The notes: generated by a model not told the origin, from the sequence alone. Shown: positions 24,007 through 44,564, counted from the first letter of the stretch. The stretch: 64,000 bases of DNA from an uncultured bacterium (GCA_964529445.1 CAZGWJ010000003.1:5592-69591); one strand, 5' to 3'. Numbers and translations: made by a program.

Positions 24007-24025
24007 GAAGCACCCCTTTCCCGTC

Positions 24026-24313: not shown

Positions 24314-24396
24314 GGAATTCCTCCCAATACATCGACCTGCCACTACACCCCTCACCCTGCCCTCTCCCCCAAGGGGCGAGGGAAAGGAAACAACTT

Positions 24397-25218
24397 TCAA
24401 CGTGCTTCATCGCCGCCTCCCTCACCCAAATCCTCGTCCGTCGTCTCGTAGATGTTCAGCATCCAAGGCATCCCCGGTTTCATGCGCGCCCACATGTCCC
24501 ATCCGTGTCGGGGCGTGAGCACCCCTTCCCGCCAAGCCCATCGCACGAACCCCAGGCAATTCACCCATCCGGAACCCCACGCCGAAAGCCCCATCAAGGC
24601 ATGCATCCAGGCCCGGTAGGGTTCTTCCGCCGGTGTGAGATCGGCCACGATGAGGTCCTTGATCTCCTTCGGAGCATCCGGCCCCGGTCCTTCAAAGACG
24701 GTCATCCTCATCTGGTCGGGCATCCCATTCATCAGCCAAACGCAAAACGTCGCGAAGGCCTTCGCGGAAGCGTCCTGGTCCGCCTGGGCCAGGGTCACGG
24801 TCGGCCCGATCCTGCGGGACGGGTCGTAGCACATCCACTTCGTCATCGGGGTTTCCTGCAGCATGAAGGGTGTCATGCCCAGGGTGGACCAGAGCAAACC
24901 GCATTCGTAATTCATCTTGGATTCGCCCTTCTCGTCCATCACGAACTTCGCCACGTTCGAGGCCGAGATCTGCTCCTTCCCCTGGGGGAGTACCAATTTC
25001 CGGAGGGTCTCCTGGATGCTCAGAGGTCCCATTTCCTTGATCTTCCCGACCGCGTGCTCCAGGACTTCCTGGCCGGCCATGAGAAAGGGGGGTATTTCCA
25101 CCCCTCTTAACACCCCGCTCTCGTCCGGCCCAAATTCCAGCTCCCCCTGGGGTTCCGGTTGAACTTCACCTTCCCCGGGCATCGGGCCGTCCTGCTTCTT
25201 TTCTTCCTGCTCGCTCAA
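24397..25218 (-). CDS. Hypothetical protein
   Basis: 273-aa ORF, translationally coupled with both flanking genes. Confidence 0.45.
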   Translation of the reverse strand: MSEQEEKKQDGPMPGEGEVQPEPQGELEFGPDESGVLRGVEIPPFLMAGQEVLEHAVGKIKEMGPLSIQETLRKLVLPQGKEQISASNVAKFVMDEKGESKMNYECGLLWSTLGMTPFMLQETPMTKWMCYDPSRRIGPTVTLAQADQDASAKAFATFCVWLMNGMPDQMRMTVFEGPGPDAPKEIKDLIVADLTPAEEPYRAWMHALMGLSAWGSGWVNCLGFVRWAWREGVLTPRHGWDMWARMKPGMPWMLNIYETTDEDLGEGGGDEAR

Positions 25219-26120
25219 GCCATCCCTCCGATCATCCGCACCGTTTCGATCAGCGTCCCCATCACGAACCCGCCGATCGCACCGTTCACGCGGATCCAGT
25301 CCAGATGGGTCTTCGCCTTGCGCTCCACCATGAGGCGGACATCATCCGCCGTCAGGGTGTCGAGGTTCTTCTTCACGACTTCCCCCACCTTGATGTGGGA
25401 GAAAAGCGCCTCCACCATGGCTTCCCTCAGTTCCTCCTCCATCTCCGGCGTGAGTAGATGGTTCAACAGGCGCCTGGTTTCCACGGCCAGGGCGCCCCTG
25501 AGATCCCCGGTCCGGGTGGCGCCGTCCATGGCACCGGCCGCCGCCTCGAAAACCAAGCTCCGGATCTTGGCCGGTAGTTCCAATCCCCGGACAACGCCCT
25601 GTCCCACCTCGACGATACTGACGACCTTCAAGGGTTCCGGCCAAGTCTCGAACCAGCGTCCGAATGCCGCGTCCACCTCTCGCTCCACGAACCCCGCGGT
25701 GGCCGGGTCCTGCAACCTTTCCCCCGCCGTGCGCAGGAGGTGTTCCTCCAGCCGTGATTGAACCCTTGATGAGAGCAACATCCCTTCCAAGACTTCCCTC
25801 ATCGGGGCCGCCAAATGCACCTCCTGCAGGTGCCGCCTCACGGCCTCGGGAGTGAACCACTCCCTCTCCACCATCCCCGCGATGTCCTCGCAGATGGCTT
25901 CCTTGTTGCGAGGGATGACCCCCGAGAAGGGGATCCACCATTTGCGTTCGAACACCATGACCACCGCCATCCAATCGACCAGGGTGCCGATCGTTCCCGC
26001 CACTGCCCCAGCACACAAGATACGGGAAGCCACGGACATACTCGTCGAGGCCCAAACGACTGCCGAAACCGCGAGGATCGGCATCAGGATCGTGACGAAG
26101 ACAGCCTTGTCGATCCTCAT
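25215..26120 (-). CDS. DUF445-like membrane protein
   Basis: Start at MRIDKAVFVTILMPILAVSAVVW. The overall pattern is an N-terminal TM followed by ...NGAIGGFVMGTLIE, loosely resembling the DUF445/YheB family. Confidence 0.4.
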   Translation of the reverse strand: MRIDKAVFVTILMPILAVSAVVWASTSMSVASRILCAGAVAGTIGTLVDWMAVVMVFERKWWIPFSGVIPRNKEAICEDIAGMVEREWFTPEAVRRHLQEVHLAAPMREVLEGMLLSSRVQSRLEEHLLRTAGERLQDPATAGFVEREVDAAFGRWFETWPEPLKVVSIVEVGQGVVRGLELPAKIRSLVFEAAAGAMDGATRTGDLRGALAVETRRLLNHLLTPEMEEELREAMVEALFSHIKVGEVVKKNLDTLTADDVRLMVERKAKTHLDWIRVNGAIGGFVMGTLIETVRMIGGMA

Positions 26121-26305
26121 CGTCCGTTTCCTTTCCGGTCCGCTTCCTTCACATCTTCCAAGGCCTGCTTGACCCGCAAGGCCAATCCTTGGACCACACC
26201 CGTTTGGATCACCTTGTAGGCGGCATAAAACCCCATGCATGTCATGAACCCCCCGACGAATGCGCTGATCATGTCTTCCTCCTTGTTCTTCGGATCCCTA
26301 TCTCT

Positions 26306-26911
26306 TTACTCGGCCCCTTTTTCCCCCATGGCCTTCTTGTAGTTCACGACCTCAAAGATGATCTCGGCCACCCGATGCAGGAAGGGGACCCTGAGGAAGG
26401 TCTCCTCCGTGTTCGCGAGGTAGTGCATGGTCAGGTCGTGGTTGCCGATCTCCCGGAGGCGCTCGGCGATGAGGTACCAATGGGCGTCGTTCCCGGGGCG
26501 GCCACAGGCGATCAGCCATTGGGCCCCCGCCTGGAACATGTCTGCGTTCTTGGCTTCCAGGATCAGGGTGAAGCCATGGGACCCCTGGATGAAGGGGTTG
26601 CCGCCCAAGCTGGCCTCTTCCATGAGGACCATGGCTCTCTCCACATCCTTCTCGCACCCGATCCCCTCGAGGAAGGACTCCGCCTGGCAGGGCTTGTTAC
26701 CCAGCCCCTTACCCTTGAGGATCCATTTCTGGTAGGTGGGAAGGTCCTGCCGGACCCCGTATCCCAACTCGTAGCAAAGCCCGATGGTGTAGCAGGCGTC
26801 CCCGTGGCCAGCCTCGGCCGCCTGCTCGAACAGGATCGCGGCATTCTCGTAATCGAACTTCTCGTACGACACGCAACCTCTTCGGTATGTCTCGTCGGCG
26901 GTTCCCACCAT
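26306..26911 (-). CDS. Sel1-repeat (TPR-like) protein
   Basis: Sel1-like repeats: AAEAGHGDACYTIGLCYELGYGVRQD, LGNKPCQAESFLEGIGCEKD, EASLGGNPFIQGSHGF. Confidence 0.55.
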   Translation of the reverse strand: MVGTADETYRRGCVSYEKFDYENAAILFEQAAEAGHGDACYTIGLCYELGYGVRQDLPTYQKWILKGKGLGNKPCQAESFLEGIGCEKDVERAMVLMEEASLGGNPFIQGSHGFTLILEAKNADMFQAGAQWLIACGRPGNDAHWYLIAERLREIGNHDLTMHYLANTEETFLRVPFLHRVAEIIFEVVNYKKAMGEKGAE

Positions 26912-27236
26912 GATCGCCTCCCGTTCGTTTTGCCTTCGTGATGTATTGAACCACTGCGCCGACCGGTTCGGGTGCTCCGCAATATTTTCATTTTTTTGCA
27001 ATATTGCAGTCGGACGGGACCAACCCGGATTTGGGTATGCTTTCCTCTAGAACCTGAACGGGGGTGTCCAATGGGACTTGTCAACGCGCTCTACAAACTG
27101 GCCCGTCTGGCCAACGACGTGAAGACTGTGGCCAGCCTGAATCCCAAGCGGATCTTGCGCCGGTTCGTGGTGAACAAATTCATCGGCCGCAACGTGGCCT
27201 CACGTCTTTATATGAAGGGGCCCCGGGGAGGCGCCC

Positions 27237-28349
27237 GTGACCCCCGCTGAAGCCCGAGGAATCCTCGATATACCAACGGGAGAGCCCCTCACGCCGGATT
27301 CGCTGAAAACGGCCTTCCGGAAGGCAGCCATGACGGCCCACCCCGACAAGGGCGGCAGCGTGCAGGCCTTCCTGAGGGTTCAGGCGGCCTATGAGTTCCT
27401 GATGAAGACTGGCGGGGCCGGGGTTCCCGACGGCGCTGTCTGGACCGAGACACCCGAGGAACTGGAGCAGCGCCTACAGGAGATCTCCCAGGCCTTCGAA
27501 CGGATCGCCCGAGGCCTCGGCGATAAGTTCGGGGATTCTTTCAACGACCTGGCCCAGAACCTGGCTACCGGCATGGAAAGCTTGGATTCACCAGCCAAGA
27601 TCGAGCGTGAATGGCCCAACGTGGTCCAGAGGGGATGGCATATCCACTGCACCGAGATGAATAACCACATCCGTACCCAGGTCGAGGACATCGCCAATGC
27701 CTTCGATGCATGGCTGGTATCGGAGATGCGGTTCAGCGTTCGATTGGCAAAAGCGCATTTCTTGAGGATGTTCTGGAGAAGGCCGCCGTTTTACCTGATC
27801 TGGCTGGGGCTGTTCGGCATATCTGGCGTCCTGCTCATTCAGCGCGCTTCAGTCAACATCACGGACCTTCCCCTCATGGCAGGATTGGGTGCCGCTACTT
27901 TGGGCCTATCAATCGCAAGCCACCTGATCTACTCCGAATCCAAGTTCACCGAAAGGGGTTTTCTGCCCCGGATGGCGGATCACTCATCAGCCCTGGACCA
28001 CGGTTATTTCCATTATTCGGTCAGCGGGGTAACCAGCACGGACGAGGCGGCCGGCGCAGGTCTTATTGGGGGCGCCGTGACAGGGGCCATCTTCGGAGGC
28101 CCCATCGGAGCCATCATTGGAGGGGTGCTCGGGGGGGTATTTGGTTCCCTGTTCGGGACTCCCATCGAGGAGATCCAAAAGAAGGTCTACGAGAACACGA
28201 TGGAGCGGATCGTGCCTATCGCGGACGGGATGTTCGAGGACCTGGTCGAACGAATTACGACGTTGCGCAATGAATACCTGAAGCAGGCACGGGAGAATTA
28301 CGAGAAAGCCTCCCGAAATGCCGTCGGCCTTTTAACATCATCGTCCTAG
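27237..28349 (+). CDS. J-domain (DnaJ-like) membrane protein with a Gly-rich C-terminal region
   Basis: LKTAFRKAAMTAHPDKGGS carries the HPD motif of J domains. Two TM helices (FYLIWLGLFGISGVLLI, LMAGLGAATLGLSIA) and a GxxxG-rich tail. GTG start. Confidence 0.55.
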   Translation: MTPAEARGILDIPTGEPLTPDSLKTAFRKAAMTAHPDKGGSVQAFLRVQAAYEFLMKTGGAGVPDGAVWTETPEELEQRLQEISQAFERIARGLGDKFGDSFNDLAQNLATGMESLDSPAKIEREWPNVVQRGWHIHCTEMNNHIRTQVEDIANAFDAWLVSEMRFSVRLAKAHFLRMFWRRPPFYLIWLGLFGISGVLLIQRASVNITDLPLMAGLGAATLGLSIASHLIYSESKFTERGFLPRMADHSSALDHGYFHYSVSGVTSTDEAAGAGLIGGAVTGAIFGGPIGAIIGGVLGGVFGSLFGTPIEEIQKKVYENTMERIVPIADGMFEDLVERITTLRNEYLKQARENYEKASRNAVGLLTSSS

Positions 28350-28691
28350 TTTATATGCGGTATATACATCGTGTTATTAACATCGCCATGCTTTTTACAC
28401 CACAATAATTGATCGCACCCGCAGTACTATCAGTTCTTCTACCCGGCCATCATTACCAAATATCCTTTCTCAATAGGTGATTGAGTCTCATATCGCCCAG
28501 ATGACTTTACGACGCAAATATCCCAGTTATGCCCGGTCGCGTTCATGTGTCCGCTTCCTCACAAAGGTTCCTTCCGCATAGCAGTATTTTCATATAATGG
28601 CCCAACCAAAGGGGCGGATCATCCCATTCCTTATTCACCATGATCGCCGTGCCGCATCATCGCCCCTACGGTCAGCACTACTCAAAGGTTC

Positions 28692-29075
28692 ATGACCATG
28701 AAAATCAATTATGGCTACCCGGATACCGTACTGGACCGCGAGACCCTTATTCGTCTCATCGAATATCTCGAGTCACAATCTCCAAATATATCCTGCCGTG
28801 CGTTCTTCGAGGATTTCCACTTTGTTTTCCGTTGGTTCAAACCCGACGGCCAACGCGGAGAGTGGACTATCCAAATCTTCGTCCGCGATTACGTGGCTCC
28901 ACATTTCGGACTTGGCAGTCTTGCTATGTCAGCCTTTAGCGCTTGCTGTTTAATGTTTCTGCGGGAGCACGCTATCGATTACGAGAGAGATCCCGGCGTT
29001 GTAACTCATTGGAGTGAGCGTCTTGTATTGTTAGGCCTGATTCCAGACGGTATCCCACGTCTCCGACCGGCCTGA
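28692..29075 (+). CDS. Hypothetical protein
   Basis: 127-aa ORF with ATG at 28692. No motif recognised. Confidence 0.4.
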   Translation: MTMKINYGYPDTVLDRETLIRLIEYLESQSPNISCRAFFEDFHFVFRWFKPDGQRGEWTIQIFVRDYVAPHFGLGSLAMSAFSACCLMFLREHAIDYERDPGVVTHWSERLVLLGLIPDGIPRLRPA

Positions 29076-29100
29076 TGCAGATTGGCGGGCGCAGACCTGA

Positions 29101-29165
29101 TCGTGGGCGCCATGACACGAGCCATCTTCAGGGACCCCATTGGCGCCATCATCGGAGGGGTTCCG
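29101..29165 (+). pseudogene. Diverged duplicate fragment of the Gly-rich region of the J-domain gene
   Basis: About 65 bp (gccatcttcagggaccccattggcgccatcatcggaggggttccggg) at roughly 80% identity to 28080-28140 (gccatcttcggaggccccatcggagccatcattggaggggtgctcggg). Confidence 0.45.
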
Positions 29166-29191
29166 GGAGTTTACATCAATTCTTTAGTTCG

Positions 29192-31222
29192 TTATGCTCC
29201 GCCAGTGCGTTCTACATATTGCGCAGTCAACTCATTTAGCAATCCGCTGTAATTATTGTTAGCGCTGAGATGTAACGCCCACGAAGAACGCATCATGGCT
29301 GTATACAGTGAACGTCTCGCCTTGTCAGAAGTCTCCCCATCTTCATCCCTCGAAGGGTAATCGTCCTCGCCAATAAATGGAATTATCAAATTTTGAAATT
29401 CAAGTCCCTTGGCACTCCATGTCGATATAAGTTTCACCGACTCTTCAGTAATGTTGATATTCTTTTTTTTGTTATCCTTCAAATAACTCTCAGTCTTTAT
29501 CCCACTCTTCTCAAAACATTGCTGTATCTTCTTGAGTTTTTCCACGTCGTTTACAAGAATCGCGACCGACGAGAGTGGAAATCCCTTTTCGCTTGTCACA
29601 TCCACGACCTTACTAAAGATCCCATAGATTTCTGCCGCCTCATCCTTATATATAACGATTTGTACCTTGGGAGGTTTTCGTCGTTTATCCCGCTCTTCCA
29701 ACGCGTCAGGAATCAGTAAATCCTCCTCGCCAAAACGTGCACCCTGCCCCTCTATCAAAGGTCGCGATGCGTAGATAATAGGTGTTGTAGATCTATAGCA
29801 TTTTTTTAGTATCGTCGTCCGCCCCTGAAGCTTATAACCCGTCAAATTCCATCTAAATCCTCGCCGGTAAATGCTTTGTGTCGAATCGCCATACATGACA
29901 ACCGAGGTAGCGGCCTTATCCGAATCGCCGAACAATCGCCTTAAGAGTAAATAAACTGACGGCGTTAGGTCCTGCGCTTCATCCACATATACATGAGTAT
30001 ATGTTTGAGCCACCCGCTTACACCTTGATGGCACACTGTTTTCCGACATCTTTAGAACATGAGTTGTCATCCTTTCCCATGGATATTTACCAATCTGCTT
30101 GCACTTTCTCATGAACTTATCAAACAACACCCAGACAACTTTCCGGGTAGATTTATCTAGTCTTTTTCCCATACCGGTACGATCGGTTTCTAAATACATA
30201 TCTTCGGTTCGTAAATATCTCCCAAGAATGATCTCCGCTATTTCGTCATATACCTCTTCTGGGGATAGTTTGAAATCGTCTTTAACGTTTTCTCCAACTA
30301 TCAACTTGAGATAAGGCATTAGCTTATCTTTTTCAGTATAATTCACACTTTCATTATCTTCCCTGACCAATGTACTGATGAAGCTATAAACCGTCTTAAT
30401 ATCCACCGACCTTTTCCCCTCCAGATCAAGATCATAGTTAATGACTTGCTTTGACAAATCGGCAAGCAACTGATTGTGACAAAGGTATAGTATCTTCTGT
30501 TTGTGTCCTACTAAATCCAGCTGTGGGTCGTTGATAACGCGCTCAATTCTGCGCAATGCGACGATCGTTTTCCCACTCCCAGCCGCCCCCTTAACTGCAT
30601 GAACAGCACCCAATTCTTTATCAACAAGCTGCCTTTGCTCATCGGACAAAGCCTTGAAATGTTCAATCAATGGAATAAAGCGATATACGTCCAATGCTTC
30701 TTCATCCACTAAGATCGTCGAAACGGGCTCCACGACGGGGATGCGATATACAGGTAATCTTGATTCCCGAGATTTTTCCTTGGTGACGGTTTTCTCTTTT
30801 GAGGGAAGAAAGTCTTCCTTCTTTAACACCTTAGCTTTTTCCATTAATACTTCAGTATTACCGTTATACGTTTCAGCCCAATCACACACTTCGTGCTCAC
30901 CGACACGATGCATTACAACTTCGGGCATGCCGCTTTTATCGTAGGGTTCATCAACGATTCTTCGCCCATGATCAATATTTGTATGAAACAAGCCTCGTTT
31001 AGAACCTTTAATAGGTGTTCTTTTCGCGCTCCCGGCTCTGAGTTCATTCAAATCGGTCAAATATGATTTGAGACGTTCCCATATCACACGTCGTAGCTTT
31101 GGCGCATGACACGCTATAGCCTCTTCTTCCTCAGCAAACCTTTTTGTAATATATGCATGATGAAAATGTGGTTTCCCAGAGTTGGTTACTGTTTCTTCGC
31201 GCATGTACTTCTCCTCAATCAC
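29192..31222 (-). CDS. UvrD/Rep-like SF1 helicase with an unassigned N-terminal domain of about 190 aa
   Basis: Walker A GAAGSGKT, Walker B YVDEAQD, and motifs IPFIGEDD...YTAMMRS. The GTG start at 31222 overlaps the upstream stop as GTGA; the ATG at 31204 is an alternative. Confidence 0.65.
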   Translation of the reverse strand: MIEEKYMREETVTNSGKPHFHHAYITKRFAEEEEAIACHAPKLRRVIWERLKSYLTDLNELRAGSAKRTPIKGSKRGLFHTNIDHGRRIVDEPYDKSGMPEVVMHRVGEHEVCDWAETYNGNTEVLMEKAKVLKKEDFLPSKEKTVTKEKSRESRLPVYRIPVVEPVSTILVDEEALDVYRFIPLIEHFKALSDEQRQLVDKELGAVHAVKGAAGSGKTIVALRRIERVINDPQLDLVGHKQKILYLCHNQLLADLSKQVINYDLDLEGKRSVDIKTVYSFISTLVREDNESVNYTEKDKLMPYLKLIVGENVKDDFKLSPEEVYDEIAEIILGRYLRTEDMYLETDRTGMGKRLDKSTRKVVWVLFDKFMRKCKQIGKYPWERMTTHVLKMSENSVPSRCKRVAQTYTHVYVDEAQDLTPSVYLLLRRLFGDSDKAATSVVMYGDSTQSIYRRGFRWNLTGYKLQGRTTILKKCYRSTTPIIYASRPLIEGQGARFGEEDLLIPDALEERDKRRKPPKVQIVIYKDEAAEIYGIFSKVVDVTSEKGFPLSSVAILVNDVEKLKKIQQCFEKSGIKTESYLKDNKKKNINITEESVKLISTWSAKGLEFQNLIIPFIGEDDYPSRDEDGETSDKARRSLYTAMMRSSWALHLSANNNYSGLLNELTAQYVERTGGA

Positions 31223-34200
31223 AACGTTGACATCAACTCTTTAACCCGTTTTGCTTGCTCCCTCAATTTCACTGCGTCTAGCCCACCCCTTTCATTTTCC
31301 TGGGACGTGAACATATTTTTCCCCTCTATTACACCATTCTTCCGGTACCATTCTTTCTTCCATTCCCATCCTTTGCGATATGTCGATTGATCTAACATAC
31401 CCAGATGTTCCCATAGAATGACATCACCGCTTAATGTCACAAAAGAGAAATCAGGACGCATATGGCCCTTTTCCTCAGACCCATCAAATACACGTTCATA
31501 TTCATACTCGATACCCTGCTCATGAAGGATATTTGCTATCACTAATTCAGATTTACTCCTTACTAAGTGTCCTTTTATCGTTCGGTGGATCAAGTGTTCA
31601 GCATAAGGCGGTTCATCTGCATCCACTCGCACCACGGATTTAAACAGGTTCGTGTTTCGATTAGCTGTTTCCGAACGTTCTGGCCGAGAATAGTCATAAA
31701 GCATAGCTGCATTATCGCCTTCGATAAATAGCACCAGATGCTCGCGAGACCGGGTTAAAGCTGTATAAAGTAGCTCCCTTGAGAGAAGGCGGCAGTCCTT
31801 TGGTAACACTAGGAATACTTTTTTAAATTCACTACCTTGGGCTTTATGCACCGTTAAGGCGTAGGCGAGTTCTAATGGCCCGCCCCCTCCGGCAAACTCA
31901 TACTCACGATAGGAAAACGTGAGTTTGGGACGATCGGCAAAAAGAACATTTAAAGAATTGTATTTTATATATGCACCAGTACCCACTTCACCGTTTGCCA
32001 CATAACATTTCTCGCTGTTCTTGCCATCCCAAGAACTGCGCCATTGATTCTGCGCTTGTATGACTTTATCCCTTTTCGCTATACACTCGTCACCAAAACT
32101 TATCATCCAGGGCTTGATGGCATCACCCAGTTCTCTCTTCCTGAATATCTTTTGAATCCAGCGATTTATCTCTTTCACACCGTGTTGTCGCATTTTAACC
32201 GGGGTTAATATCTGCCAATTCTCCGCACCATTCGGTGACTCAAATGGTACGTTTCCCGCCGAGATAACCGGCCTCAATACTTGCCCATTTGGCATAACGA
32301 GCGATTCGCCTAAGTTTGATTCACGTAAATTGTCATATCCCAAAGACCTGTCAAATCCCACAATATCATTGCTGCTTTTTAGGCCCAGGTGGTGCTGAAA
32401 CGATGTCAGCAACTTATCCTTCAAATCATCAGAGTCCTTCCACAATACGATGTCCAAATCGTTGAACTTGCCTCCCAATTCCAGATCACTGAGCACCCGA
32501 TCCGAATCGACCTGTTGCGGTTCGCGTGTAAACCAAGATGCCAATCGCAACGCATCTGAACTGTCATTGCCAATTGAAGATGATCTGACTTCGACAGTCA
32601 AACGCGCTAATGCATCCTTCACATATTCGCCATCTGGCGTTTTGTCCTGGCTGTTCTCTAAATATGTCGTCAAATCAGCGAATGGTCGACCGATGCCAAT
32701 CGGGGGTAATTGATTCGGATCACCTACCAATATGATCCTTTGAACATGTGCCAGATCCAGAGCCATTAGGACCGCATACAAGTCATCCATCGTCAGCATC
32801 GAACATTCGTCAATTATGATCGTTTTCTCGCGCCTATATTTCTGTTTACTATCGAAAAGGGGTCTCTGGATATTGGTATTGTATCGATCCAACTTATACA
32901 GGAATTGAGCAACCGTCATTCCCTCCGAACCAGCCGCTCTCCCCAATCTGACACGTGCTTTCCCAGTCGGAGCCAACAGCAAAATACCATCACTCGCCAA
33001 AGATGCGCATCTTGACAATGCGCCCACGATTGAAGTCTTTCCTGTTCCCGCTCTACCCATCAATACTGAAAGTCGCCGTCTTGTTACCTTTTCTAATGCT
33101 TCAGACTGTTCATCAATCGCGGACGTATGTCTGCTATTTCGCTCATCATATTTACCACCAGATCTCTCGATTGCCTCGAGCAACAGCGCTTTCCAATTCA
33201 CCCCAAGAGAAGGATGCGTCTTTTCAACCCTCCTTGACAGAATCTTGCTCAATTCTTCTTCTCGCTTGTGCACTTCCGTCAATTGAAGAGCCAGTTCCTT
33301 CTTTCCACTATTACCCGCTGGTTCATATTCAACGACGTCAATAACCTTCTTCAACATTTCCTTGTTAGCAATAGGCCAATGTGCTCCCATTTCACAAGGA
33401 TGGTCTAGGTCCAGTTTTGTTGTCGCATGAACCGCTTCTTTAATGCTTAACAGCGTATCCCCCTTATCCGCTGCTCTCCGCAATACCGCAACGATTGCAG
33501 CACGAAGGCGTCTTGTATCATTGGGCGTCTCAACAGCAGAGGGGCTTGGCACAGGATGTTTAGCGGCAATAATAGGATCGGGACGAAGGGCCCTATCAAC
33601 TGCACCTATAGAAACTGGGGCATCATCCTCATCCCCCATGTCAATCTCGCAGATTAAATAGGGGTTCTGCAAAACATCTTCATCACAGACACGAACCATC
33701 GTCCTTTCTGCGCGATGAATTGAGTCGAACCATCGGTCTGCCTGCTTTTTTGTTAAAGCCATTCTCGACAACAAACGCAAGAGATCCTTCGTTTCGCGTT
33801 GATGGTAGATCCAACTATCTCTTGCCGCTTCTACATCGGGCTTATAGGATTCTAGTGGCGGTTTCATCTTTCCGTTCAATACAGCATCTACTATTGGCCA
33901 AGGATCCATTTCTGGAGTGATCATCTTTCTATCTAGCATATCTCGCACAAACGAGACGCCCAGTCGCATACCCATGGCTTCCAGAACACTGCCCAAGCCA
34001 GGATAAGCGCCCCTATCCTTCCAGGTAGTGGCAATTTGTGCATTCAACCATTCTTCGCGTTTTTCCCACGGGCCAGGCACAATACCGTGCGAACGGATTG
34101 CGCGAACTGCCTTTAAACAATGCGTTAGAGTTGATAGCGCCACATCTGGTGAAGCCAACTCTGAACCATATGAGAAGCTTCGCGTTGCCGATTCATCCGC

Positions 34201-34998
34201 TTCTACGATGATCTCATCAAGAAGAGCGGTGCGTCGCGCGTCTTCTTTCGCATCTCCTGTCGGAGCCAAGTATTCGTGATATGGCAGGATGAACCCATCG
34301 ACTCCATCGTTTCGTATCGAGTGTTGGAACAGAAGATCCCACATTAAGTATGACTGTTTCTTCTCCGTCTCATATTCTATGGGGGGTGATATTCTTTGAA
34401 TCCTTCCTACGCCCACTACCAATCGTGATATGGCTTCGCCCAATGGATGCCCATTTTTGCAATAGAAGAATACCAACGATTGCTCGGGCACAATTCGTTT
34501 GTGAAAATGCTCAAGCAATGCTCTCTGCCGTGCCCTGCCGAATACCCAGGCAGTTGGAAAAGGGGGTTCATCATCTATTGGCATCGGTTCCGGAAGTTTG
34601 CTGTCGATTTCTTCCTGGTTCTTACTGAGCATCCATGCGAATGGCACCGCGTACGTGGAGTATGGTGGTGTTCTAACCAAGGTGGGTTTCAAGTGACCGT
34701 GAGTCGCAGATACTGAAGATATTTCCGAATAGGGGTGTTTAAATAACCTCATCCATTCATGCGGACTCATAAAAGCGCCTGATTCTGCCTTGCACACGGG
34801 TAATTGATCCGGTCTTAACTTGTTCCAGGTACGTCCAGCCATGGTATTTTCTATATCTTCGTCACGACCCAGGCGTATACGATCTAGCGCAACACAATAG
34901 CAGTTTTTTGACGGCTCCTTACAAACACAACCATCCCACCGAGAATCATGCCACGCAACTCTCACCGTCAAGTGATCCACTCGCGCCTCCACAGGCAC
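31219..34998 (-). CDS. Large RecD/Dda-like SF1 helicase with a C-terminal PD-(D/E)xK (DUF559/Vsr-like) nuclease domain and a long unassigned N-terminal region
   Basis: Helicase motifs MGRAGTGKTS, IIIDECSM, ILVGDPNQLPPIG and LTVHKAQGSEF. The C-terminus LVIANILHEQGIEYEYERVF...RPDFSF...ILWEHLG resembles Vsr/DUF559 endonucleases. Confidence 0.65.
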   Translation of the reverse strand: MPVEARVDHLTVRVAWHDSRWDGCVCKEPSKNCYCVALDRIRLGRDEDIENTMAGRTWNKLRPDQLPVCKAESGAFMSPHEWMRLFKHPYSEISSVSATHGHLKPTLVRTPPYSTYAVPFAWMLSKNQEEIDSKLPEPMPIDDEPPFPTAWVFGRARQRALLEHFHKRIVPEQSLVFFYCKNGHPLGEAISRLVVGVGRIQRISPPIEYETEKKQSYLMWDLLFQHSIRNDGVDGFILPYHEYLAPTGDAKEDARRTALLDEIIVEADESATRSFSYGSELASPDVALSTLTHCLKAVRAIRSHGIVPGPWEKREEWLNAQIATTWKDRGAYPGLGSVLEAMGMRLGVSFVRDMLDRKMITPEMDPWPIVDAVLNGKMKPPLESYKPDVEAARDSWIYHQRETKDLLRLLSRMALTKKQADRWFDSIHRAERTMVRVCDEDVLQNPYLICEIDMGDEDDAPVSIGAVDRALRPDPIIAAKHPVPSPSAVETPNDTRRLRAAIVAVLRRAADKGDTLLSIKEAVHATTKLDLDHPCEMGAHWPIANKEMLKKVIDVVEYEPAGNSGKKELALQLTEVHKREEELSKILSRRVEKTHPSLGVNWKALLLEAIERSGGKYDERNSRHTSAIDEQSEALEKVTRRRLSVLMGRAGTGKTSIVGALSRCASLASDGILLLAPTGKARVRLGRAAGSEGMTVAQFLYKLDRYNTNIQRPLFDSKQKYRREKTIIIDECSMLTMDDLYAVLMALDLAHVQRIILVGDPNQLPPIGIGRPFADLTTYLENSQDKTPDGEYVKDALARLTVEVRSSSIGNDSSDALRLASWFTREPQQVDSDRVLSDLELGGKFNDLDIVLWKDSDDLKDKLLTSFQHHLGLKSSNDIVGFDRSLGYDNLRESNLGESLVMPNGQVLRPVISAGNVPFESPNGAENWQILTPVKMRQHGVKEINRWIQKIFRKRELGDAIKPWMISFGDECIAKRDKVIQAQNQWRSSWDGKNSEKCYVANGEVGTGAYIKYNSLNVLFADRPKLTFSYREYEFAGGGGPLELAYALTVHKAQGSEFKKVFLVLPKDCRLLSRELLYTALTRSREHLVLFIEGDNAAMLYDYSRPERSETANRNTNLFKSVVRVDADEPPYAEHLIHRTIKGHLVRSKSELVIANILHEQGIEYEYERVFDGSEEKGHMRPDFSFVTLSGDVILWEHLGMLDQSTYRKGWEWKKEWYRKNGVIEGKNMFTSQENERGGLDAVKLREQAKRVKELMSTL

Positions 34999-35032
34999 AC
35001 ATCGTTACGCCCATTAATGACAATATAGGTTC

Positions 35033-36136
35033 CTAGTTCTTTCGCGCCCAAATGTCATACTCACACATTGCAGGCGAATTGGTTCTCACGAAGTATTCCG
35101 ACTGTCTTTTCCCGCCCGAGGCATTTCCCGCCTGCTTGATCGTCTCTATAACCCAGGGAGTTCCGTCTAAGGATCTTTTAATAATGCCGATCGGGTCCTT
35201 CTTTCGGTCATTGATCGATCCATAACGAATGACCATCCTGCAATTCTTATGAGCCGAATCAGCAGAATTAACCCATACCTTTTTCAACTCATCCGCAAAC
35301 TCATTGGGACTCCTGTGATTGACTTGCAACTTGTTGTGGTAGACAACTTTTGCAGGAGCCCCCAGGAACCACAATCGAAGCCATTGATCTGGGATATATG
35401 TTCGCATTCCATAATATGGCGGCGATGTGATTATCCAGTTATAGCTTCCCTTAACCGCACGATACGACGACCCCCGACGGCTATCGCCGCATATAACTTC
35501 GCTCTTCGAATCCGGGCATTCGCTTGTGTAATAGCGATTAGCGCGGCATCGAATAATTTCCATAACATCAACGTCAACCGGGTGTAATTGGTTTCTTTTC
35601 CAATACTTAACGGAGTAAGCAGGTTTAGGCGCGAACGTGCGTGTGCACTGATTCGATAAATACGACTGTCCTTTTTTAGGGCGTGGACCATGCAGCGCGC
35701 CCAATACAATTCCCAGTAATGCACGTCTTGCCGGAGAACGCGCATCTCGTAAAAGCGCAGAGCGCAACTTGCATACTTCCTTAAGTGTGTTCCTCGAATA
35801 CGCCCATTTCCAAAATTCCCCAGTCGGGCAATCAACAGCCGGTTCGGTTTTGAGGATCCGTTCCGCCGCATCGATAATATCGGATGGAGTTGTACAAGCG
35901 ATTTTCGCTCGGCTTATCGCCGTAGCCACGGGGTTACTATCAATTCCGGCGGAATCCATCCCAAGCATGCGCGCTGCATAGATCGTTGTACCCCGGCCGC
36001 AAAACGGATCCAGCACACCGCGCACAGTACTTTTGTGTTCACACAATATTTCATACGGAAAGCTCAATGGGAACATAGTGAAGTACGGGCATATACCATT
36101 CAAAACACTATTCGGTTCAGTCTGTGGTGTTTTCAT
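35033..36136 (-). CDS. DNA methyltransferase, amino-methyltransferase type (N6A or N4C)
   Basis: Motif I VLDPFCGRGTTIYAARMLGMDSAGIDSNP and motif IV ITSPPYYG. The ATG at 36136-36134 overlaps the HerA-like stop as ATGA. Confidence 0.7.
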   Translation of the reverse strand: MKTPQTEPNSVLNGICPYFTMFPLSFPYEILCEHKSTVRGVLDPFCGRGTTIYAARMLGMDSAGIDSNPVATAISRAKIACTTPSDIIDAAERILKTEPAVDCPTGEFWKWAYSRNTLKEVCKLRSALLRDARSPARRALLGIVLGALHGPRPKKGQSYLSNQCTRTFAPKPAYSVKYWKRNQLHPVDVDVMEIIRCRANRYYTSECPDSKSEVICGDSRRGSSYRAVKGSYNWIITSPPYYGMRTYIPDQWLRLWFLGAPAKVVYHNKLQVNHRSPNEFADELKKVWVNSADSAHKNCRMVIRYGSINDRKKDPIGIIKRSLDGTPWVIETIKQAGNASGGKRQSEYFVRTNSPAMCEYDIWARKN

Positions 36137-38277
36137 TTCTTTGGGTTTGGATTCGGGCCAGTTTTCACGTACGTCTTGTTCTCCGCATTCCGGAAGGCAT
36201 GCCACGCCTGATCTTGAGGACCGATTATCTCGTTCAGTGCGGTTACTACCATACGATATGCCATGTCGTCGCGGTTATCTATTTTCGGTGGAAGAGTGGT
36301 TACAAAAAGAGCCTTTACAGAACCCCATGCAGCACCCTCTCCACGAATGCGACCCAAGAGTTTTTCATCGGCCCTGAGGGCGTTAACACAAGCTTCGCGC
36401 AATACGGCAAGATTATCAACGGGTTCCTCGTCTGTTGATTCGGTACCCGGAACTGTCGGCTGTGTTTTCTGCGTCCCATCCGCAGCACCAGGTTGAGTAT
36501 TTTGTGGTTGCGTCTTAGGTGGCATCGACACCGAGGGTGCAGGAAATTCCCTCTGTACCGTTTGTGCGAATGTTTCAGCAGCAGGTTTGTTGTAGTCAGG
36601 GTCAAGCCGGTGGAACTTGTCCTCAAAAGAAAGAACGCGTAGTGAGATCGGGTAGGATTTTCCTTTAACGGAACTCCAAAATACACCTTGTCCAGGAATC
36701 GGTTCATTGAGTAGAGCAGATAGTATGTCATTACTGAAATGGGAGTTTGCCTTGGATACGCTTAAAAGATCAGCCGCGGATAGCAAATGGAAAACAAACC
36801 AATTGTCGCCTTGGCTGAGTATCTCCACCGGAATACTACCTGGTTGCTGTGTCACCATAAGAGCACCGAGATCGTATTTCCGACCTTCCTTAACCCAAGC
36901 TATGTATGGTTCTGCCGATGTGGCAGTATCGTTCAATACAGTCTGGGCCTCCTCGACCACGGCAATGGTAGGAATCGTCTGGGGGTTATCGGAGGTGAAC
37001 TCCGCTTGGTTACGATCAAAGATACGGCGCAGTATGATTCCAGAAAGTATAAGCGCCTGTGCTCCACGCATCTGCGATACATCCACGATACACAGCTTTC
37101 CTTGTTGCAACGCGTAAATGAGCATATCCATCAGCTGACTGCTTTTATCGTGGAGCATGCCGACAATGGTTGTCATGTTCCCTCTGGCCGCAAGAGCTTC
37201 GGCTTGTTGCTCTCGTTCAAGTGAGAGGATGCGCATGACATCGTCGAGTGGAGTCGAGTTTTTATTCACATCGATCAGATTGACCAATTCCTCCCATCGG
37301 GCGGAATCAAGACCTCTTAGCTTACGCACATTCTGCTGATCTTGACGATCCGGGCCTAGAGCGATGCCAATCACATCGGCCGGTCTTAGGCGGCGGATAT
37401 CCAGCTTAATTCCACCAGCGACGAATGACTGGTAGAAAGGGCTGCTACTACGCCTGGAAGTGAACACAACGAGTTTATCCTGTAGGGCCGGCACATCGCA
37501 CAATCCCGGCCGGCCCTTATCATCAGGCCAGAAATACTCCCCTTCCGGATCAAAGATCACTGTGCCGACGGGTACCTGGCGATTTCTTTTTTCCACGGTT
37601 GGTGTTTTCTCATAAAGTTGGCTGAACAAAAGCTTGTTAAGATTTGATTTACCGAATCCGGCGCGCGCAAAGATGAACGAGCGGCGCGAGACAAGACTGT
37701 CTACCGCAAATTTGACAAGTACTTCCGGCGATTTTACTTGCATCCAATCTTCAACCTTTAGCTGATCTCCTCCCTGTGCATAAATGTATTCACCGAATGC
37801 AAGATAGCCAATGGGAGAAGCCTTGATGTTGTGACCAGCCAGCTCCTGGAGTACCGGCCCCGACGGAAAGGCAACAGGGCTTCCCACATGTGGCAATCGT
37901 CTGTGTGAAGCCACGAAAGACAACTCGCCATTCGTCTTATGACGTATGACACCCAGCACCCTTATGTTGACTCGATACTTGAGGTAATCTTCGCGCAGGT
38001 TCTCTGGAACCTGTCGTTCTTCGCGGACCGCACGGATATTGAATTCTTCGCCCGCACCAGAAGATAGTTTTCCTTCGGACGAGAATGCGGTGATCCGCCC
38101 TAATACTGCCTCCTCGGGGGTCTCAAGTTGAACAAGGACAAATTGTCCATGCATGGGTCGGCACTGAAAATCACCCCGATACGGCAATACCAGGTCCGCG
38201 TGAAACTCCAGACCTCCTTCGCGGAAGCCACGAAACACGCCAACAATTTGGTCCTTTGGAAACAATTCTAAAGACAT
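36133..38277 (-). CDS. HerA/FtsK-like (DUF87) ATPase
   Basis: Walker A FARAGFGKSN, Walker B IAVVEEAQ, and an arginine-finger region typical of HerA-like hexameric ATPases. 714 aa. Confidence 0.6.
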   Translation of the reverse strand: MSLELFPKDQIVGVFRGFREGGLEFHADLVLPYRGDFQCRPMHGQFVLVQLETPEEAVLGRITAFSSEGKLSSGAGEEFNIRAVREERQVPENLREDYLKYRVNIRVLGVIRHKTNGELSFVASHRRLPHVGSPVAFPSGPVLQELAGHNIKASPIGYLAFGEYIYAQGGDQLKVEDWMQVKSPEVLVKFAVDSLVSRRSFIFARAGFGKSNLNKLLFSQLYEKTPTVEKRNRQVPVGTVIFDPEGEYFWPDDKGRPGLCDVPALQDKLVVFTSRRSSSPFYQSFVAGGIKLDIRRLRPADVIGIALGPDRQDQQNVRKLRGLDSARWEELVNLIDVNKNSTPLDDVMRILSLEREQQAEALAARGNMTTIVGMLHDKSSQLMDMLIYALQQGKLCIVDVSQMRGAQALILSGIILRRIFDRNQAEFTSDNPQTIPTIAVVEEAQTVLNDTATSAEPYIAWVKEGRKYDLGALMVTQQPGSIPVEILSQGDNWFVFHLLSAADLLSVSKANSHFSNDILSALLNEPIPGQGVFWSSVKGKSYPISLRVLSFEDKFHRLDPDYNKPAAETFAQTVQREFPAPSVSMPPKTQPQNTQPGAADGTQKTQPTVPGTESTDEEPVDNLAVLREACVNALRADEKLLGRIRGEGAAWGSVKALFVTTLPPKIDNRDDMAYRMVVTALNEIIGPQDQAWHAFRNAENKTYVKTGPNPNPKK

Positions 38278-38285
38278 CTTGCCCC

Positions 38286-39434
38286 CTATCCATAACGCCG
38301 CTGAGCGGGATCTTTGTCTTTCAGTCTGAACACATCAAGCGCGGTACCACCGTCGCCCAATTGAGCGCGTATACCTCTGAAAATCTCGTCCTGAAGAATA
38401 TCAAAATCGAAATCGACTAAAGCGGCATTCTCATGTGCCTTCTGGAGACATTGAGGATAAAAAGGCACGGGGAATCCGTTGATAGCGTCAGCCAACATGT
38501 ATCCAACGATCGCATCCGCGTTTGCTACCTGCGGCATGAATATATCCACTGGCCATATAGGATCGTTCGGCCTACTACCGAACTTAACAAAATACATCTT
38601 TCCACCCACGAATTTATTGATCTCCCCACTCCCGAAGTTATCATCACTCCCGCGCGCGTACTCATCCCAAACATATGCATTTCGCTCGAGCTCACGATCA
38701 ATTTCAGCATAAGCGGGATAGTTCGTTTGAAGAATACCCTCGATAGCCATGATCAGCCTATACCGATCCAGTACCTTGCTGGATTTGCACACGCCGGTCA
38801 GATATATACGCCTATGACTTTTCTTATAGTGTGCTTCGATCGAGCCTTCTATACCCTTCAGAAGCTTCGGGAACAAGTCGCCCGAGAACACCTTACTTCT
38901 CAGCAGTCCGTCACACACAAATATCGTATCTGTTGCAAATTCCTTGGTATGAAGTATGTGAAATAGAATCGCCCACTCTACCAATTCTCGATACACCTGC
39001 ACCCAGGAGGGGCTTACGGGTCGCCCAGGTTGTGGTTTACGGATCATCGGACTCAATTGAGTGATATTGTTCAGATTCAAAAAGGACATCATGTAACCCA
39101 GGGATGTTTTGGGTTTTCCAGAAGGATCAAATTGGCGAGCACTTAATCGATCCATGTCCATTGTGGGAGATACAACATCCAGACAATATTCGTTGTTGCT
39201 TGAGTCTACGACCCTTATTAACTGAACCAAAAACGGGTCGAATTGGATGCTGTTATTACCGCCATCTGTTCCCACCAAAGAAAAGGAGGTCGTCGATCTC
39301 GGTTGAATACGACGGACTTTTGAGGCCAACAAGCGCACTTCAGTACGCAATTGATCTATAAGGCCATGATCATCCGTTATCTGATCACGTATGCTTTTTC
39401 GCAGTTCTTCAATGCTATGAGGATCTATCGCCAT
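38286..39434 (-). CDS. NurA-like nuclease domain protein
   Basis: FSLVGTDGG and IFVCDGLL resemble the NurA Asp-containing motifs. It lies 8 nt upstream of the HerA-like gene, the usual HerA-NurA pairing. Confidence 0.45.
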   Translation of the reverse strand: MAIDPHSIEELRKSIRDQITDDHGLIDQLRTEVRLLASKVRRIQPRSTTSFSLVGTDGGNNSIQFDPFLVQLIRVVDSSNNEYCLDVVSPTMDMDRLSARQFDPSGKPKTSLGYMMSFLNLNNITQLSPMIRKPQPGRPVSPSWVQVYRELVEWAILFHILHTKEFATDTIFVCDGLLRSKVFSGDLFPKLLKGIEGSIEAHYKKSHRRIYLTGVCKSSKVLDRYRLIMAIEGILQTNYPAYAEIDRELERNAYVWDEYARGSDDNFGSGEINKFVGGKMYFVKFGSRPNDPIWPVDIFMPQVANADAIVGYMLADAINGFPVPFYPQCLQKAHENAALVDFDFDILQDEIFRGIRAQLGDGGTALDVFRLKDKDPAQRRYG

Positions 39435-39587
39435 TACTTCGCCTCATTTTGCCAGCAGGACTGTGAACGTTTTTAGGCGCAACGACACAATTTCAGCAGG
39501 TAGTTAGTCTTTTTGGCATTTTAGACCTCTGGGTCGGTTGCGTCTCTATATTTTCGATCTATAAGGCATTTTTTATATAACTCCAGC

Positions 39588-41774
39588 TTAAACTCCAGCC
39601 CTTTTGTCCTGCATATCTTCCAGAAATTCCGAGGCAGGGTTGATGCCTGTTATGAGGAGATGGTCACGCGCTCGGGTACACGCCACATAAAGCAGATGCC
39701 TTTCGGTGATGTATACATCCTCCAAATCCGCCTCATCTGCTATTGAGCTTATGCGAGATTGAAGTGGTATTACTTCATCATCACAAGCCATTACAACGAC
39801 CGCTTTGAATTCCAGTCCTTTTGCAAGATGCATTGTCCCTATGGATACTTTCCCGCCGGTTGTCTCTACGTTTTCATCCAGGAGCTTGTATTCAACACCC
39901 GCATTTTTGATGGCGGAAACGGCCCGCTCCATCTGGGCCTCCGATCGCACGAATACGCCCAACTCATGCGGTTCCACTCCCTCATCTCTCAACTGCTTTA
40001 CCCAGGCACTCACCTGCTTACCCTCGTCCGCTGTATTCTCGCAGATTCTAATTATCGGCGCGGGTCCGTTGAATACGGATACTGTGTTTCCTCTTTCCTC
40101 ACTGTTTCCATCCGCATCCGTTACCTCGGGTGCTAAGAGCCGATCCACGCGTGTACGGATCTGGTGGGATGTACGGTAGTTAACGTTCAAGGTGAAAGAG
40201 CGCCCCTGGATATTTACGCCGAGTGCCTTCCATGAGAATGGCAACTGGAATATCCGCTGTCCCAGGTCACCCGTAAAGAACAGTCTGTTTGGTTTATCGG
40301 CGCCCAACGCCGCCAAGAAGCGTAAGTGGGCCACACCCAAGTCCTGTGCCTCATCCGCGACAGCGTAGTCGAAAGGTGGATTACTACTTTCTCTGATGGA
40401 TTGCGCCAGTCTGGTGAACATTCCGGAATAAGTAAGAAGACCCTGCTCGCCAAGCCTCTTCCTCGCTTTATCAAATATTGCCCAAAGAATCTGTCGTTGC
40501 CCTTCTGATAATCGTGTTTTCCGTCCCAATCGGATCACATCTCGATATGCCTCCCAAGTCTCCAATTGCCAGGCATCCACCACTTGGTCCCATTCCATCT
40601 TGATAAACGCCAGACTGAATTTGTGACCGCCTACTTCGGCAGATGCGTCTTGCAAATATCCATTCACTTTATCCTTCGCGGCAATACCTACCTGGCCTAT
40701 TCGAGATTTATATAGACGGTGTCCTATTGCATCAATTGAGCATACTTCTAGCCTCTCTGCTAATCGTGGTTCAGCGCTGATCAAACGCCGTAGTTGTGCG
40801 TGGAGCGCATTGGCCAACACTTCCGTGTGCGTTGTCATTAAAACGCGGGCTTCGGGGTTAGTTCGCGCCAGATAAACGGCCCGATGCAATGCAACCACTG
40901 TTTTGCCAGTACCGGCTGAGCCAGTTACCCTCGCAGGTCCGCCATACTTTTTCTCAATCAGCTCTCTCTGATCCGGATGAAGGAAAATAGTCCACTTATC
41001 CCACGGATATTCCAGAGCCATCTTTAGTTCTTCGATATTCTTGATTAATCGGAATCGCCGCTTAGCATCCGGGTGTTCAAAAGGATTTGAAGTTAAGTGC
41101 TCAGTGCTCTCATGCGTCGTGTTCACCATGCCACTAATCGCCGCTGGAACAGTACAGAACATCGCCCCTTTAAGCATAGGCTCCATAACACCGCCGACAG
41201 CAACGCTTGGCGTTTTCGGGTGACCACCCGTAGCCAATTCCAGGAGTGATTCAGCCGCTTCGCTTGGCAAATGATCTGCTATATTCAAGATCGTATCTTC
41301 GGTCGCTTTCTTAACATCCTTCATCCATTCGAGTGGCACGCCCAGTCGCAATATCGCCTCATCGGGTATGTTCGAGAACAAAGGCGGTTTTTCAGGCTTC
41401 GGATATTCCACTTCCTTGTATTTAGGTATGAACACTTCCTTTACCGTCTCACGCACTTCAACGATCTGCGCCGCGCCTGTTTTGGGGTGCGTTTCAATCT
41501 TCCTGGTTTCAGCCCATTGATATGCCTTGTCGTGGTGGGCAACGTAGCACAACAAATAGCTGTTCTCTTTGCGATGAACGACCATGCGAATATCCCGCCC
41601 AACACGCGCGGACCAGAAATTCCGATCTCTCGAATGATCGATCTTGTGAAAGCTCAGACTTGGCAGGGTGGGATCTAATTGAAAATCCGTCACAGCTATT
41701 TTGGCGGCTTTTTGGTCCTCATTCGTCAATCGCCCCAAACTCTCAGTAAACGTATCGGCAATATACAGTTCCAT
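39588..41774 (-). CDS. UvrD-like SF1 helicase with an N-terminal ParE/RelE-like toxin-fold domain
   Basis: The N-terminal 90 aa (...FHKIDHSRDRNFWSARVGRDIRMVVHRKENSYLLCYVAHHDKAY) follow the RelE/ParE pattern. Helicase motifs: GSAGTGKT, VADEAQD, YVACTRAR. The ATG at 41774 overlaps the mod stop. Confidence 0.6.
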   Translation of the reverse strand: MELYIADTFTESLGRLTNEDQKAAKIAVTDFQLDPTLPSLSFHKIDHSRDRNFWSARVGRDIRMVVHRKENSYLLCYVAHHDKAYQWAETRKIETHPKTGAAQIVEVRETVKEVFIPKYKEVEYPKPEKPPLFSNIPDEAILRLGVPLEWMKDVKKATEDTILNIADHLPSEAAESLLELATGGHPKTPSVAVGGVMEPMLKGAMFCTVPAAISGMVNTTHESTEHLTSNPFEHPDAKRRFRLIKNIEELKMALEYPWDKWTIFLHPDQRELIEKKYGGPARVTGSAGTGKTVVALHRAVYLARTNPEARVLMTTHTEVLANALHAQLRRLISAEPRLAERLEVCSIDAIGHRLYKSRIGQVGIAAKDKVNGYLQDASAEVGGHKFSLAFIKMEWDQVVDAWQLETWEAYRDVIRLGRKTRLSEGQRQILWAIFDKARKRLGEQGLLTYSGMFTRLAQSIRESSNPPFDYAVADEAQDLGVAHLRFLAALGADKPNRLFFTGDLGQRIFQLPFSWKALGVNIQGRSFTLNVNYRTSHQIRTRVDRLLAPEVTDADGNSEERGNTVSVFNGPAPIIRICENTADEGKQVSAWVKQLRDEGVEPHELGVFVRSEAQMERAVSAIKNAGVEYKLLDENVETTGGKVSIGTMHLAKGLEFKAVVVMACDDEVIPLQSRISSIADEADLEDVYITERHLLYVACTRARDHLLITGINPASEFLEDMQDKRAGV

Positions 41775-44563: not shown

Positions 44564-44564
44564 T

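Follow-up and report, generated by a model that had tools for sequence, protein, structure and literature searches.

Three stacked defence-type modules in a tRNA-Gly island, one of them a widespread NurA–HerA–methyltransferase cassette

The subject of this work is a run of five minus-strand open reading frames (ORFs) at 29192-39434 of a 64,000-nt stretch of DNA from an uncultured bacterium (GCA_964529445.1 CAZGWJ010000003.1:5592-69591), hereafter the window. They encode a NurA-like nuclease, a HerA-like ATPase, a DNA methyltransferase (MTase), a 1259-aa RecD-type helicase and a 676-aa UvrD-like helicase (UvrD1). The locus comprises three separate defence-type modules lying end to end and is not a five-gene machine. 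NurA, HerA and MTase form a three-gene cassette that is widespread, uncharacterised and horizontally mobile and occurs in defence contexts. The 1259-aa gene is assigned by profile match to an already catalogued candidate, PDC-S68, and UvrD1 is a separate gene which, judging from its relatives, probably belongs with a CARF/NE0113 gene set of the same island. With a probability of roughly 0.55, we read the locus as a stack of independent modules (the cassette, PDC-S68 and UvrD1) in a tRNA-Gly island, in which the cassette would act as a methylation-gated degrader resembling TdpAB. The initial annotation had treated the five genes as one restriction–modification (R–M)-like system that matches no nameable defence system. 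The latter statement holds for the cassette, which has no specific model in PADLOC 2.0.0 or NCBIfam, but not for the 1259-aa protein, which is covered by PDC-S68. A literature search found no published NurA–HerA–methylase defence system.

Conservation and composition of the locus

The cassette comprises the ORFs of a NurA-like nuclease of TdpB type (38286-39434, minus strand, 382 aa), a HerA/FtsK-type hexameric ATPase of TdpA type (36133-38277, minus strand, 714 aa) and an N6/N4 amino-DNA-methyltransferase (35033-36136, minus strand, 367 aa from ATG, a form also present in the public protein collection). Outside the cassette lie the ORFs of PDC-S68, a RecD2-like superfamily 1B helicase (31219-34998, minus strand, 1259 aa) that represents a separate single-gene defence candidate, and of UvrD1, a UvrD/PcrA-like superfamily 1A helicase (29192-31222, minus strand, 676 aa). 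The coordinates bear out the five minus-strand frames, and most of the tight junctions initially described are as claimed: NurA and HerA are 8 nt apart, and the HerA stop shares the ATGA at 36133-36136 with the MTase start. The gap between the MTase and the 1259-aa ORF measures 34 nt and not 35. The GTGA overlap between the 1259-aa stop and the UvrD-like start is present at 31219-31222, but it hinges on the chosen start, because the public call of the UvrD-like protein (670 aa) begins at an ATG 18 nt downstream. A promoter and terminator scan of the locus found fewer sites than were seen in shuffled controls and did not mark out any usable boundary.

NurA homologues were sought in a collection of 185,579 species, each represented by a single genome, and hits were confirmed by tblastn, which gave 226 confirmed stretches spread over many phyla. 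The NurA-like homologues number 3232 (62-82% identical, from many phyla), i.e. the family has ~3200 proteins in public data. Eighty of the 226 stretches were fetched with 10-kb flanks, and partners were tested both by tblastn of eight window proteins against these 80 loci and by separate clustering of all neighbouring ORFs. Counted over 81 sources (the 80 loci and the window), NurA is found in 77, HerA in 75 and the MTase in 61; ORF clustering revealed no further conserved partner family, every other family being present in at most 6 of the 81. Enough sequence after HerA to place the MTase is available in 71 loci (L003 scored as downstream), and in 56 of them the MTase lies directly downstream of HerA on the same strand, with 7 more having it elsewhere within the locus. 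The spacing is usually as tight as in the window, mostly 8-12 nt between NurA and HerA and -4 to +6 nt between HerA and MTase. By tblastn, the 1259-aa gene is found in none of the 80 NurA loci and a UvrD-like gene in one. A second sample, taken around PDC-S68, consists of 80 metagenomic loci with homologues 50-59% identical; NurA, HerA and the cassette MTase occur in none of these, nor does a UvrD1-type gene downstream. Neighbourhood analysis, which had been set beforehand as the refuting test, thus detected no joint conservation of the five genes, and the claim that they form one system is not borne out. What stands of the R–M-like reading is that HerA/NurA and a single amino-methyltransferase make up a real conserved unit, with TdpAB as a precedent; the two superfamily 1 (SF1) helicases are not part of it. 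Genes packed tightly on one strand of a defence island do not, by that alone, make up a system.

Two further loci bear on the mobility of the cassette. In the window it follows a type III-like R–M system with its own helicase (39588-47660, minus strand; Res 44565-47660, Mod 41774-44563, UvrD2 39588-41777). In L121, genes for Res (71% identity), Mod (65%), UvrD2 (57%) and PDC-S68 (53%) are contiguous, i.e. the window arrangement minus the cassette, and in L007 the order is Res-Mod-[NurA-HerA-MTase]-UvrD2, with Mod and UvrD2 on either side of the cassette. The cassette thus acts like an insert that can move on its own. Moreover, NurA proteins of Desulfacinum and Methylococcus are 92% identical, which implies recent transfer across phyla.

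The immediate neighbours of the cassette are often of defence type, including UvrD-nuclease helicases, HsdM, ResIII, GmrSD, DUF6079 and WYL proteins, and integrases are also found. A helicase-type R–M system directly adjoins the cassette in the window and in 7 of the 80 loci (L005, L007, L008, L009, L033, L052 and L053), and about 85% of loci have no R–M beside it. Five loci (L005, at 6541-9852, L006, L009, L029 and L033) carry a Sacsin/NOV_C GHKL protein of ~1100 aa directly upstream of NurA–HerA on the same strand. In three of these the cassette MTase was not found, and in L006 it lies far upstream. Sacsin-bearing cassette loci also have a type III-like Mod-Res pair and an AddA-like helicase-nuclease on the opposite side.

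The cassette proteins

The NurA-like protein has no direct match in Pfam, PADLOC or NCBIfam. Nevertheless, its family profile finds TdpB with an E-value of 8.5e-13, at a sequence identity of only ~16%, and some divergent members of the family match Pfam NurA directly. An AlphaFold2 model computed from a 16-sequence alignment was unusable (predicted local distance difference test, pLDDT, of 50) and was replaced by one from a diverse 46-sequence alignment that included 50%-cluster representatives. This second model reached a pLDDT of 90.2, and a Foldseek search with it agrees, which confirms the NurA fold behind the label initially given to the protein. A protein search with a 106-aa TdpB fragment copied from the HMMER alignment returned no match. 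The protein is an RNase H-like fold nuclease whose gene adjoins that of a TdpA-type HerA, as is the case for TdpB.

The HerA-like protein matches Pfam DUF87 (1.2e-19), and its best PDB match as a single sequence is TdpA (2.7e-18). The family profile (A4) strengthens this kinship: TdpA is found at 7.7e-32 and Sso HerA at 9.5e-19, with weaker matches to the SIR2- and DUF4297-associated HerAs. The Walker A motif, ARAGFGKSN, spans residues 203-211, and the EEAQ motif (442-445) does not vary among homologues. Indeed, the catalytic and nucleotide-binding motifs of the cassette proteins are kept in at least 95% of homologues. The profile alignment covers residues 102-585 of the 586 in TdpA, and since it ends there, the last ~150 residues of HerA represent a family-specific addition. 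This C-terminal tail (residues ~561-714, window 36133-36600, minus strand) is absent from TdpA and has nothing usable in Pfam at E<=1, although it contains the near-invariant residues G648, W651, P663, G686 and W692.

The third protein is a single amino-methyltransferase, as had been proposed from its motifs, DPFCGRGTT and SPPY, which are indeed found at one position each (43 and 238). It matches Pfam N6_N4_Mtase (PF01555) at 2.3e-9, with the match confined to the section of the profile around motif I, and also PADLOC MTase_II models. Motif I (DPFxGRGTT) precedes motif IV (TSPPYYG) by ~195 residues, each motif being retained by at least 95% of the 58 MTase homologues. In the best PDB match, 2zie (Thermus TTHA0409-type), motif I and SPPY align in swapped order; by this alignment, the cassette MTase has its motifs in a circularly permuted form of the beta-class arrangement. 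The SPPY form of motif IV is seen more often in N4-cytosine enzymes.

The three proteins differ in the pace of their evolution. Mean pairwise identity is 76% for NurA, 83% for the HerA core, 41% for the HerA tail and 58% for the methylase. NurA and the HerA core covary closely (Spearman 0.93), and the methylase correlates with NurA/HerA at only ~0.5. Once the core and NurA signal is removed, the HerA tail retains a partial correlation with the methylase (r 0.32), versus -0.09 for the HerA core. The MTase thus evolves faster and is only loosely co-phyletic with NurA/HerA, and the tail–MTase correlation hints at a link between the MTase and the motor. A highly conserved motor (83% across phyla) combined with a variable tail and methylase offers a clear experimental handle.

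Relation to known systems and competing explanations

The closest characterised relative is TdpABC (An et al., Nat Chem Biol 2025, ref. 11 of PMC12914056), for which structures of TdpA/TdpB have been solved (PDB 8wet, 8wfd (TdpAB–DNA cryo-electron microscopy) and 8y1k). In both cases a HerA-type ATPase is combined with a NurA-type nuclease, the best solved match of both window proteins being the TdpAB complex, and in both a three-gene unit ends with a gene for a DNA-modifying enzyme. That enzyme, however, is an N6/N4 methyltransferase in the cassette and TdpC in TdpABC, which PMC12914056 cites as a third phosphorothioate system with only tdpC needed for modification. Furthermore, the cassette HerA has the extra, variable tail of ~150 aa that TdpA lacks, and the hosts of the cassette are mesophilic, environmental and phylogenetically broad, whereas Tdp hosts are thermophiles. 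The cassette has TdpA- and TdpB-type proteins and no TdpC; with another kind of modification gene, it does not count as a Tdp system. By analogy, it is credible that the cassette represents the TdpAB kind of modification-controlled restriction with a different modification gene.

A second possible relative, compared by gene content, is the tdtA operon of ICEth1 from T. thermophilus HB27 (TTC1877-1880), which contains, in the same order, genes for a restriction enzyme, a NurA-like protein (377 aa), a HerA-like protein and a pfam01555 methylase (410 aa) (PMC5365140). The ICEth1 element carries an integrase and sits in a tRNA gene locus (PMC5365140), and the window has the order Res-Mod-UvrD2-NurA-HerA-MTase in an att-bounded island. 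The two differ in that TdtA has 568 aa versus 714 aa in the cassette HerA, the upstream enzyme is of type IIG in ICEth1 and type III-like in the window, and the described role of the operon is DNA donation, not defence: the restriction enzyme cuts donor DNA, and NurA and TdtA push DNA out for uptake by other cells (PMC5365140).

HerA/FtsK-type ATPases also serve defence in SIR2-HerA, DUF4297-HerA, DndFGH and MADS, the last being a methylation-based system encoded by the eight-gene mad1-8 operon that includes the mad2 methylase (10.1101/2023.03.30.534895). The matches of the cassette HerA to these are weak and partial (1e-17 or worse; mad8 2.9e-9; DndH 5e-4), and none of the systems was accepted. 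For SIR2-HerA and DUF4297-HerA, the window HerA adjoins NurA and the MTase and scores 53 bits with NCBIfam HerA_antiphage against a cut-off of 800; for Dnd, the DndH match is weak and there is no DndF/G partner; and for MADS, HerA alone weakly matches mad8, with no mad1-7 partner. Classical R–M of types I-III was also rejected for the cassette, the partners of its MTase being a NurA nuclease and a HerA ATPase and not HsdR, Res or a PD-(D/E)xK restriction endonuclease.

In the reading that we prefer, a HerA hexamer and a NurA dimer would assemble into a TdpAB-like complex that threads duplex DNA at the expense of ATP and degrades it. The methyltransferase would mark the host's own DNA, and this mark would prevent loading, translocation or cutting on self DNA. 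In TdpABC, modification reportedly blocks both translocation and nuclease activity of TdpAB on self DNA. Incoming DNA without the mark, or DNA broken by a neighbouring restriction enzyme, would then undergo processive destruction. The leading candidate for a part that communicates with the methylase or reads the mark is the HerA tail, which evolves fast.

Several observations weigh against such gating. A backbone-tracking hexameric motor has no obvious means to sense a base methyl group. The cassette-family MTase is absent from 8 of the 71 informative loci, six of which have another MTase gene within a few kb. All eight share one HerA tail type, as they would if tail type predicted the methylase arrangement, but they belong to a single clade with 95% identity in the core, and 11 loci that do have a downstream methylase show this tail type as well. 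The tail–MTase correlation is modest, and its data points are not phylogenetically independent. In divergent NurA–HerA (700 aa) pairs with a NurA identity of 25-46% (L171:7001-11523, L172:6277-10251 and L168:6-3882), the third gene encodes a MobA/MobL relaxase-like, MmcB-like nuclease or DruA-domain protein and no methylase, so the methylase is not an obligate partner of the motor; this suggests that NurA–HerA acts as a modular core whose third partner can be exchanged. Loss of the putative methylase of ICEth1 is tolerated with only minor effects (PMC7767461), which is not what classical R–M would predict, if that operon is orthologous. Finally, the cassette is absent from 72,556 plasmids, against which tblastn of HerA returned no full-length relative and 6 partial matches, none from Thermus.

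A more ambitious form of the methylation-gated reading is that NurA–HerA–MTase constitutes a widespread, unnamed R–M architecture, in which a TdpAB-like ring translocase-nuclease degrades DNA processively and is kept from self DNA by base methylation in place of phosphorothioation, the hypervariable HerA tail links the motor to the methylase or its mark, and the Thermus operon belongs to the same class, with DNA donation as a by-product. We advance this form tentatively, as one that is rather more probably wrong than right. If the cassette is a methylation-gated restriction system, the TdpAB principle, in which a DNA mark controls a processive ring motor and nuclease, would no longer be limited to a rare phosphorothioate system of thermophiles but would also cover ordinary base methylation and many phyla. 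R–M would gain an architecture without a classical endonuclease, and the DNA-donation operon of Thermus ICEth1 could be reinterpreted in terms of defence.

Alternatively, NurA–HerA might be a follow-up degrader that acts on breaks made by an adjacent restriction enzyme, with the methylase being an ordinary solitary or protective enzyme that has no gating role. We consider this unlikely, although it deserves attention: helicase-type R–M stands directly beside the cassette in the window, in seven loci and in ICEth1, the cassette is nested at two different positions of the same Res-Mod-UvrD2 system (window and L007), and archaeal HerA-NurA is described as acting in end resection (PMC12977600). 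The large majority of loci that have no R–M beside the cassette argue otherwise, as does the methylase, which is far more constant than any R–M neighbour.

Somewhat less plausible still is that the cassette is a DNA-processing or donation module of an integrative element, comparable to the tdtA operon and its part in transjugation. The ICEth1 operon combines Tth111II, a NurA-like protein, TdtA and a pfam01555 methylase, and its restriction endonuclease, NurA and TdtA are needed for donation (PMC5365140, PMC7767461). The window cassette, too, follows an R–M system in an integrase-bearing island, and in one divergent relative HerA is followed by a gene for a MobA/MobL relaxase. However, TdtA is 146 aa shorter than the window HerA, the neighbours of the cassette are mostly defence and not transfer genes, and transjugation needs a highly competent recipient, a Thermus-specific trait. 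Consistent with the absence of a full-length HerA relative from the plasmids, a scan of 2.9 million viral contigs returned no NurA-family relative, which also speaks against donation.

That all five genes form one R–M-like system, with HerA/NurA and the two SF1 helicases as the restriction half, is very improbable. The shared strand, the very short or overlapping junctions and the lack of a convincing terminator between the genes mean that the five may be co-transcribed here, but their relatives are not found together in either set of 80 loci, PDC-S68 is catalogued as a single-gene candidate, and the closest relative of UvrD1 has other partners. Least credible of all is a housekeeping end-resection pair for double-strand breaks, as in archaea and Deinococcus, whose HerA–NurA complex shares both folds and the adjacency of the two genes: the cassette is sparsely distributed (only 226 confirmed stretches in the one-genome-per-species collection), reaches 92% identity across phyla, has a linked methylase, lies in a low-GC (guanine plus cytosine) att-bounded island, and has no Mre11/Rad50 nearby in the neighbouring-ORF clustering of cassette loci, so that this alternative, raised by the initial annotation against its own proposal, did not materialise.

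PDC-S68, UvrD1 and the surrounding island

The 1259-aa protein matches PADLOC PDC-S68 (PDLC05065) with 1410 bits, residues 6-1252 aligning with positions 4-1218 of the 1221 in the profile, and no difference from PDC-S68 was found. PDC stands for 'phage defence candidate', the S-series entries list single ORFs, and PDC-S68 is a computational candidate only. The proposed RecD-type helicase identity is confirmed by the Pfam domains AAA_30, AAA_19 and UvrD_C_2 and by NCBIfam RecD2 (1.1e-63). Among solved structures, RecD2 (PDB 3e1s) is matched at 2e-21, and the motifs quoted for the protein each occur at a single position (GTGKT 651, DECSM 730, VGDPNQLPPIG 758 and VHKAQGSEF 1050). The Vsr/DUF559 assignment of the C-terminus was not reproduced, Pfam being empty there at E<=1. 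Weak PADLOC matches to PD-(D/E)xK-containing candidates (PDC-S69, 5.5e-6; HEAT_CxxC_PD-DEXK, 0.004) leave a PD-(D/E)xK nuclease as a possible identity of this region. The N-terminus of ~600 aa is without assignment, as noted earlier, with nothing usable in Pfam at E<=1.

No partner family from the window recurs in the 80 PDC-S68 loci, in keeping with a stand-alone gene. Its commonest neighbour there is a HEPN_Swt1-SNF2 helicase of ~1000-1190 aa, present in 24 of the 80 (L083-L162, e.g. L092:9200-15921). Loci with PDC-S68 and HEPN_Swt1-SNF2 often contain a Sacsin-type GHKL protein or an Eco57I-like methylase as well.

Pfam UvrD-helicase and UvrD_C domains confirm the UvrD-like label of the 676-aa protein, and its N-terminal 190 aa, described as unassigned, indeed have nothing usable in Pfam at E<=1. 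Gabija was considered and rejected: the protein matches GajB only partially (5e-22), and there is no GajA among the eight proteins scanned (29192-47660). Only 11 UvrD1 homologues were found, none of them in a scan of viral contigs, and no linkage to NurA/HerA or PDC-S68 was found outside the window. The closest homologue (48% identity), in L163, follows a 290-aa gene, a Cas_NE0113/CARF gene and a 486-aa gene, the window homologues of which lie at 22081-22995 (45%), 19371-20531 (36%) and 20521-21993 (43%), respectively. More distant UvrD1 relatives (34% identity) are found after a 908-aa DEAD-box helicase that adjoins CBASS (cyclic oligonucleotide-based antiphage signalling system).

The four families (a CARF5/Cas_NE0113 protein, a 490-aa orphan, a PDC-M72B-like 304-aa protein and the UvrD-like helicase) are side by side in L163:298-5859 and within 12 kb in the window (19371-22995 and 29192-31222, both minus strand), in a different order. 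They may constitute an undescribed CARF-linked set. In the window, UvrD1 is separated from its likely partner genes by a 6.2-kb stretch (22995-29192) of higher GC (0.57-0.61) within the low-GC island, which has DUF445 and DnaJ-domain ORFs on mixed strands.

The whole defence island spans ~43 kb (9891-53018) and is marked by direct repeat ends, an integrase and low GC. A 23-nt direct repeat, TGGAGCGGGCGATGGGACTCGAA, is found at 9891-9913 and 52996-53018, 43.1 kb apart, and its second copy is the 3' end of tRNA-Gly(ccc). As a tyrosine integrase gene (48696-50042) lies next to this tRNA-Gly, the repeats can be taken as att-like ends of the island. GC is mostly 0.43-0.52 within the island (0.39 near 16-18 kb; 0.57-0.61 at 22-28 kb), compared with 0.60-0.65 in the flanks. 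Together with the matches of Mod and Res, the integrase upholds the description of an integrase-bearing island next to a type III R–M. Res matches the BPTD_3080 restriction endonuclease family (NF046055, 1358 bits) and Mod matches PADLOC MTase_III (PDLC03632, 1393 bits), and the Mod stop overlaps the UvrD2 start. The Res-Mod-UvrD2 triple recurs in L007, L115 and L121, making four independent loci with the window. The 265-aa N-terminus of UvrD2 has a weak ParE/RelE-like match (E 0.0048), and a homologue at the Joint Genome Institute is annotated as RelE.

The island also encodes the CARF5 protein and the PDC-M72B-like gene mentioned above. At 13460-15308 (plus strand), the gene of a DarT ADP-ribosyltransferase domain protein (391 aa) overlaps that of a DarT1-type NADAR antitoxin (2.5e-74), and from these matches the two are predicted to be a DarTG-type toxin–antitoxin defence pair. 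Shortly before them, at 12154-13314, is a nucleoside 2-deoxyribosyltransferase-like gene. Further on, at 15364-19189 (minus strand), a 523-aa HEC-07 (Hma-embedded candidate) protein (2e-38) is encoded beside a 735-aa protein without a Pfam or PADLOC match.

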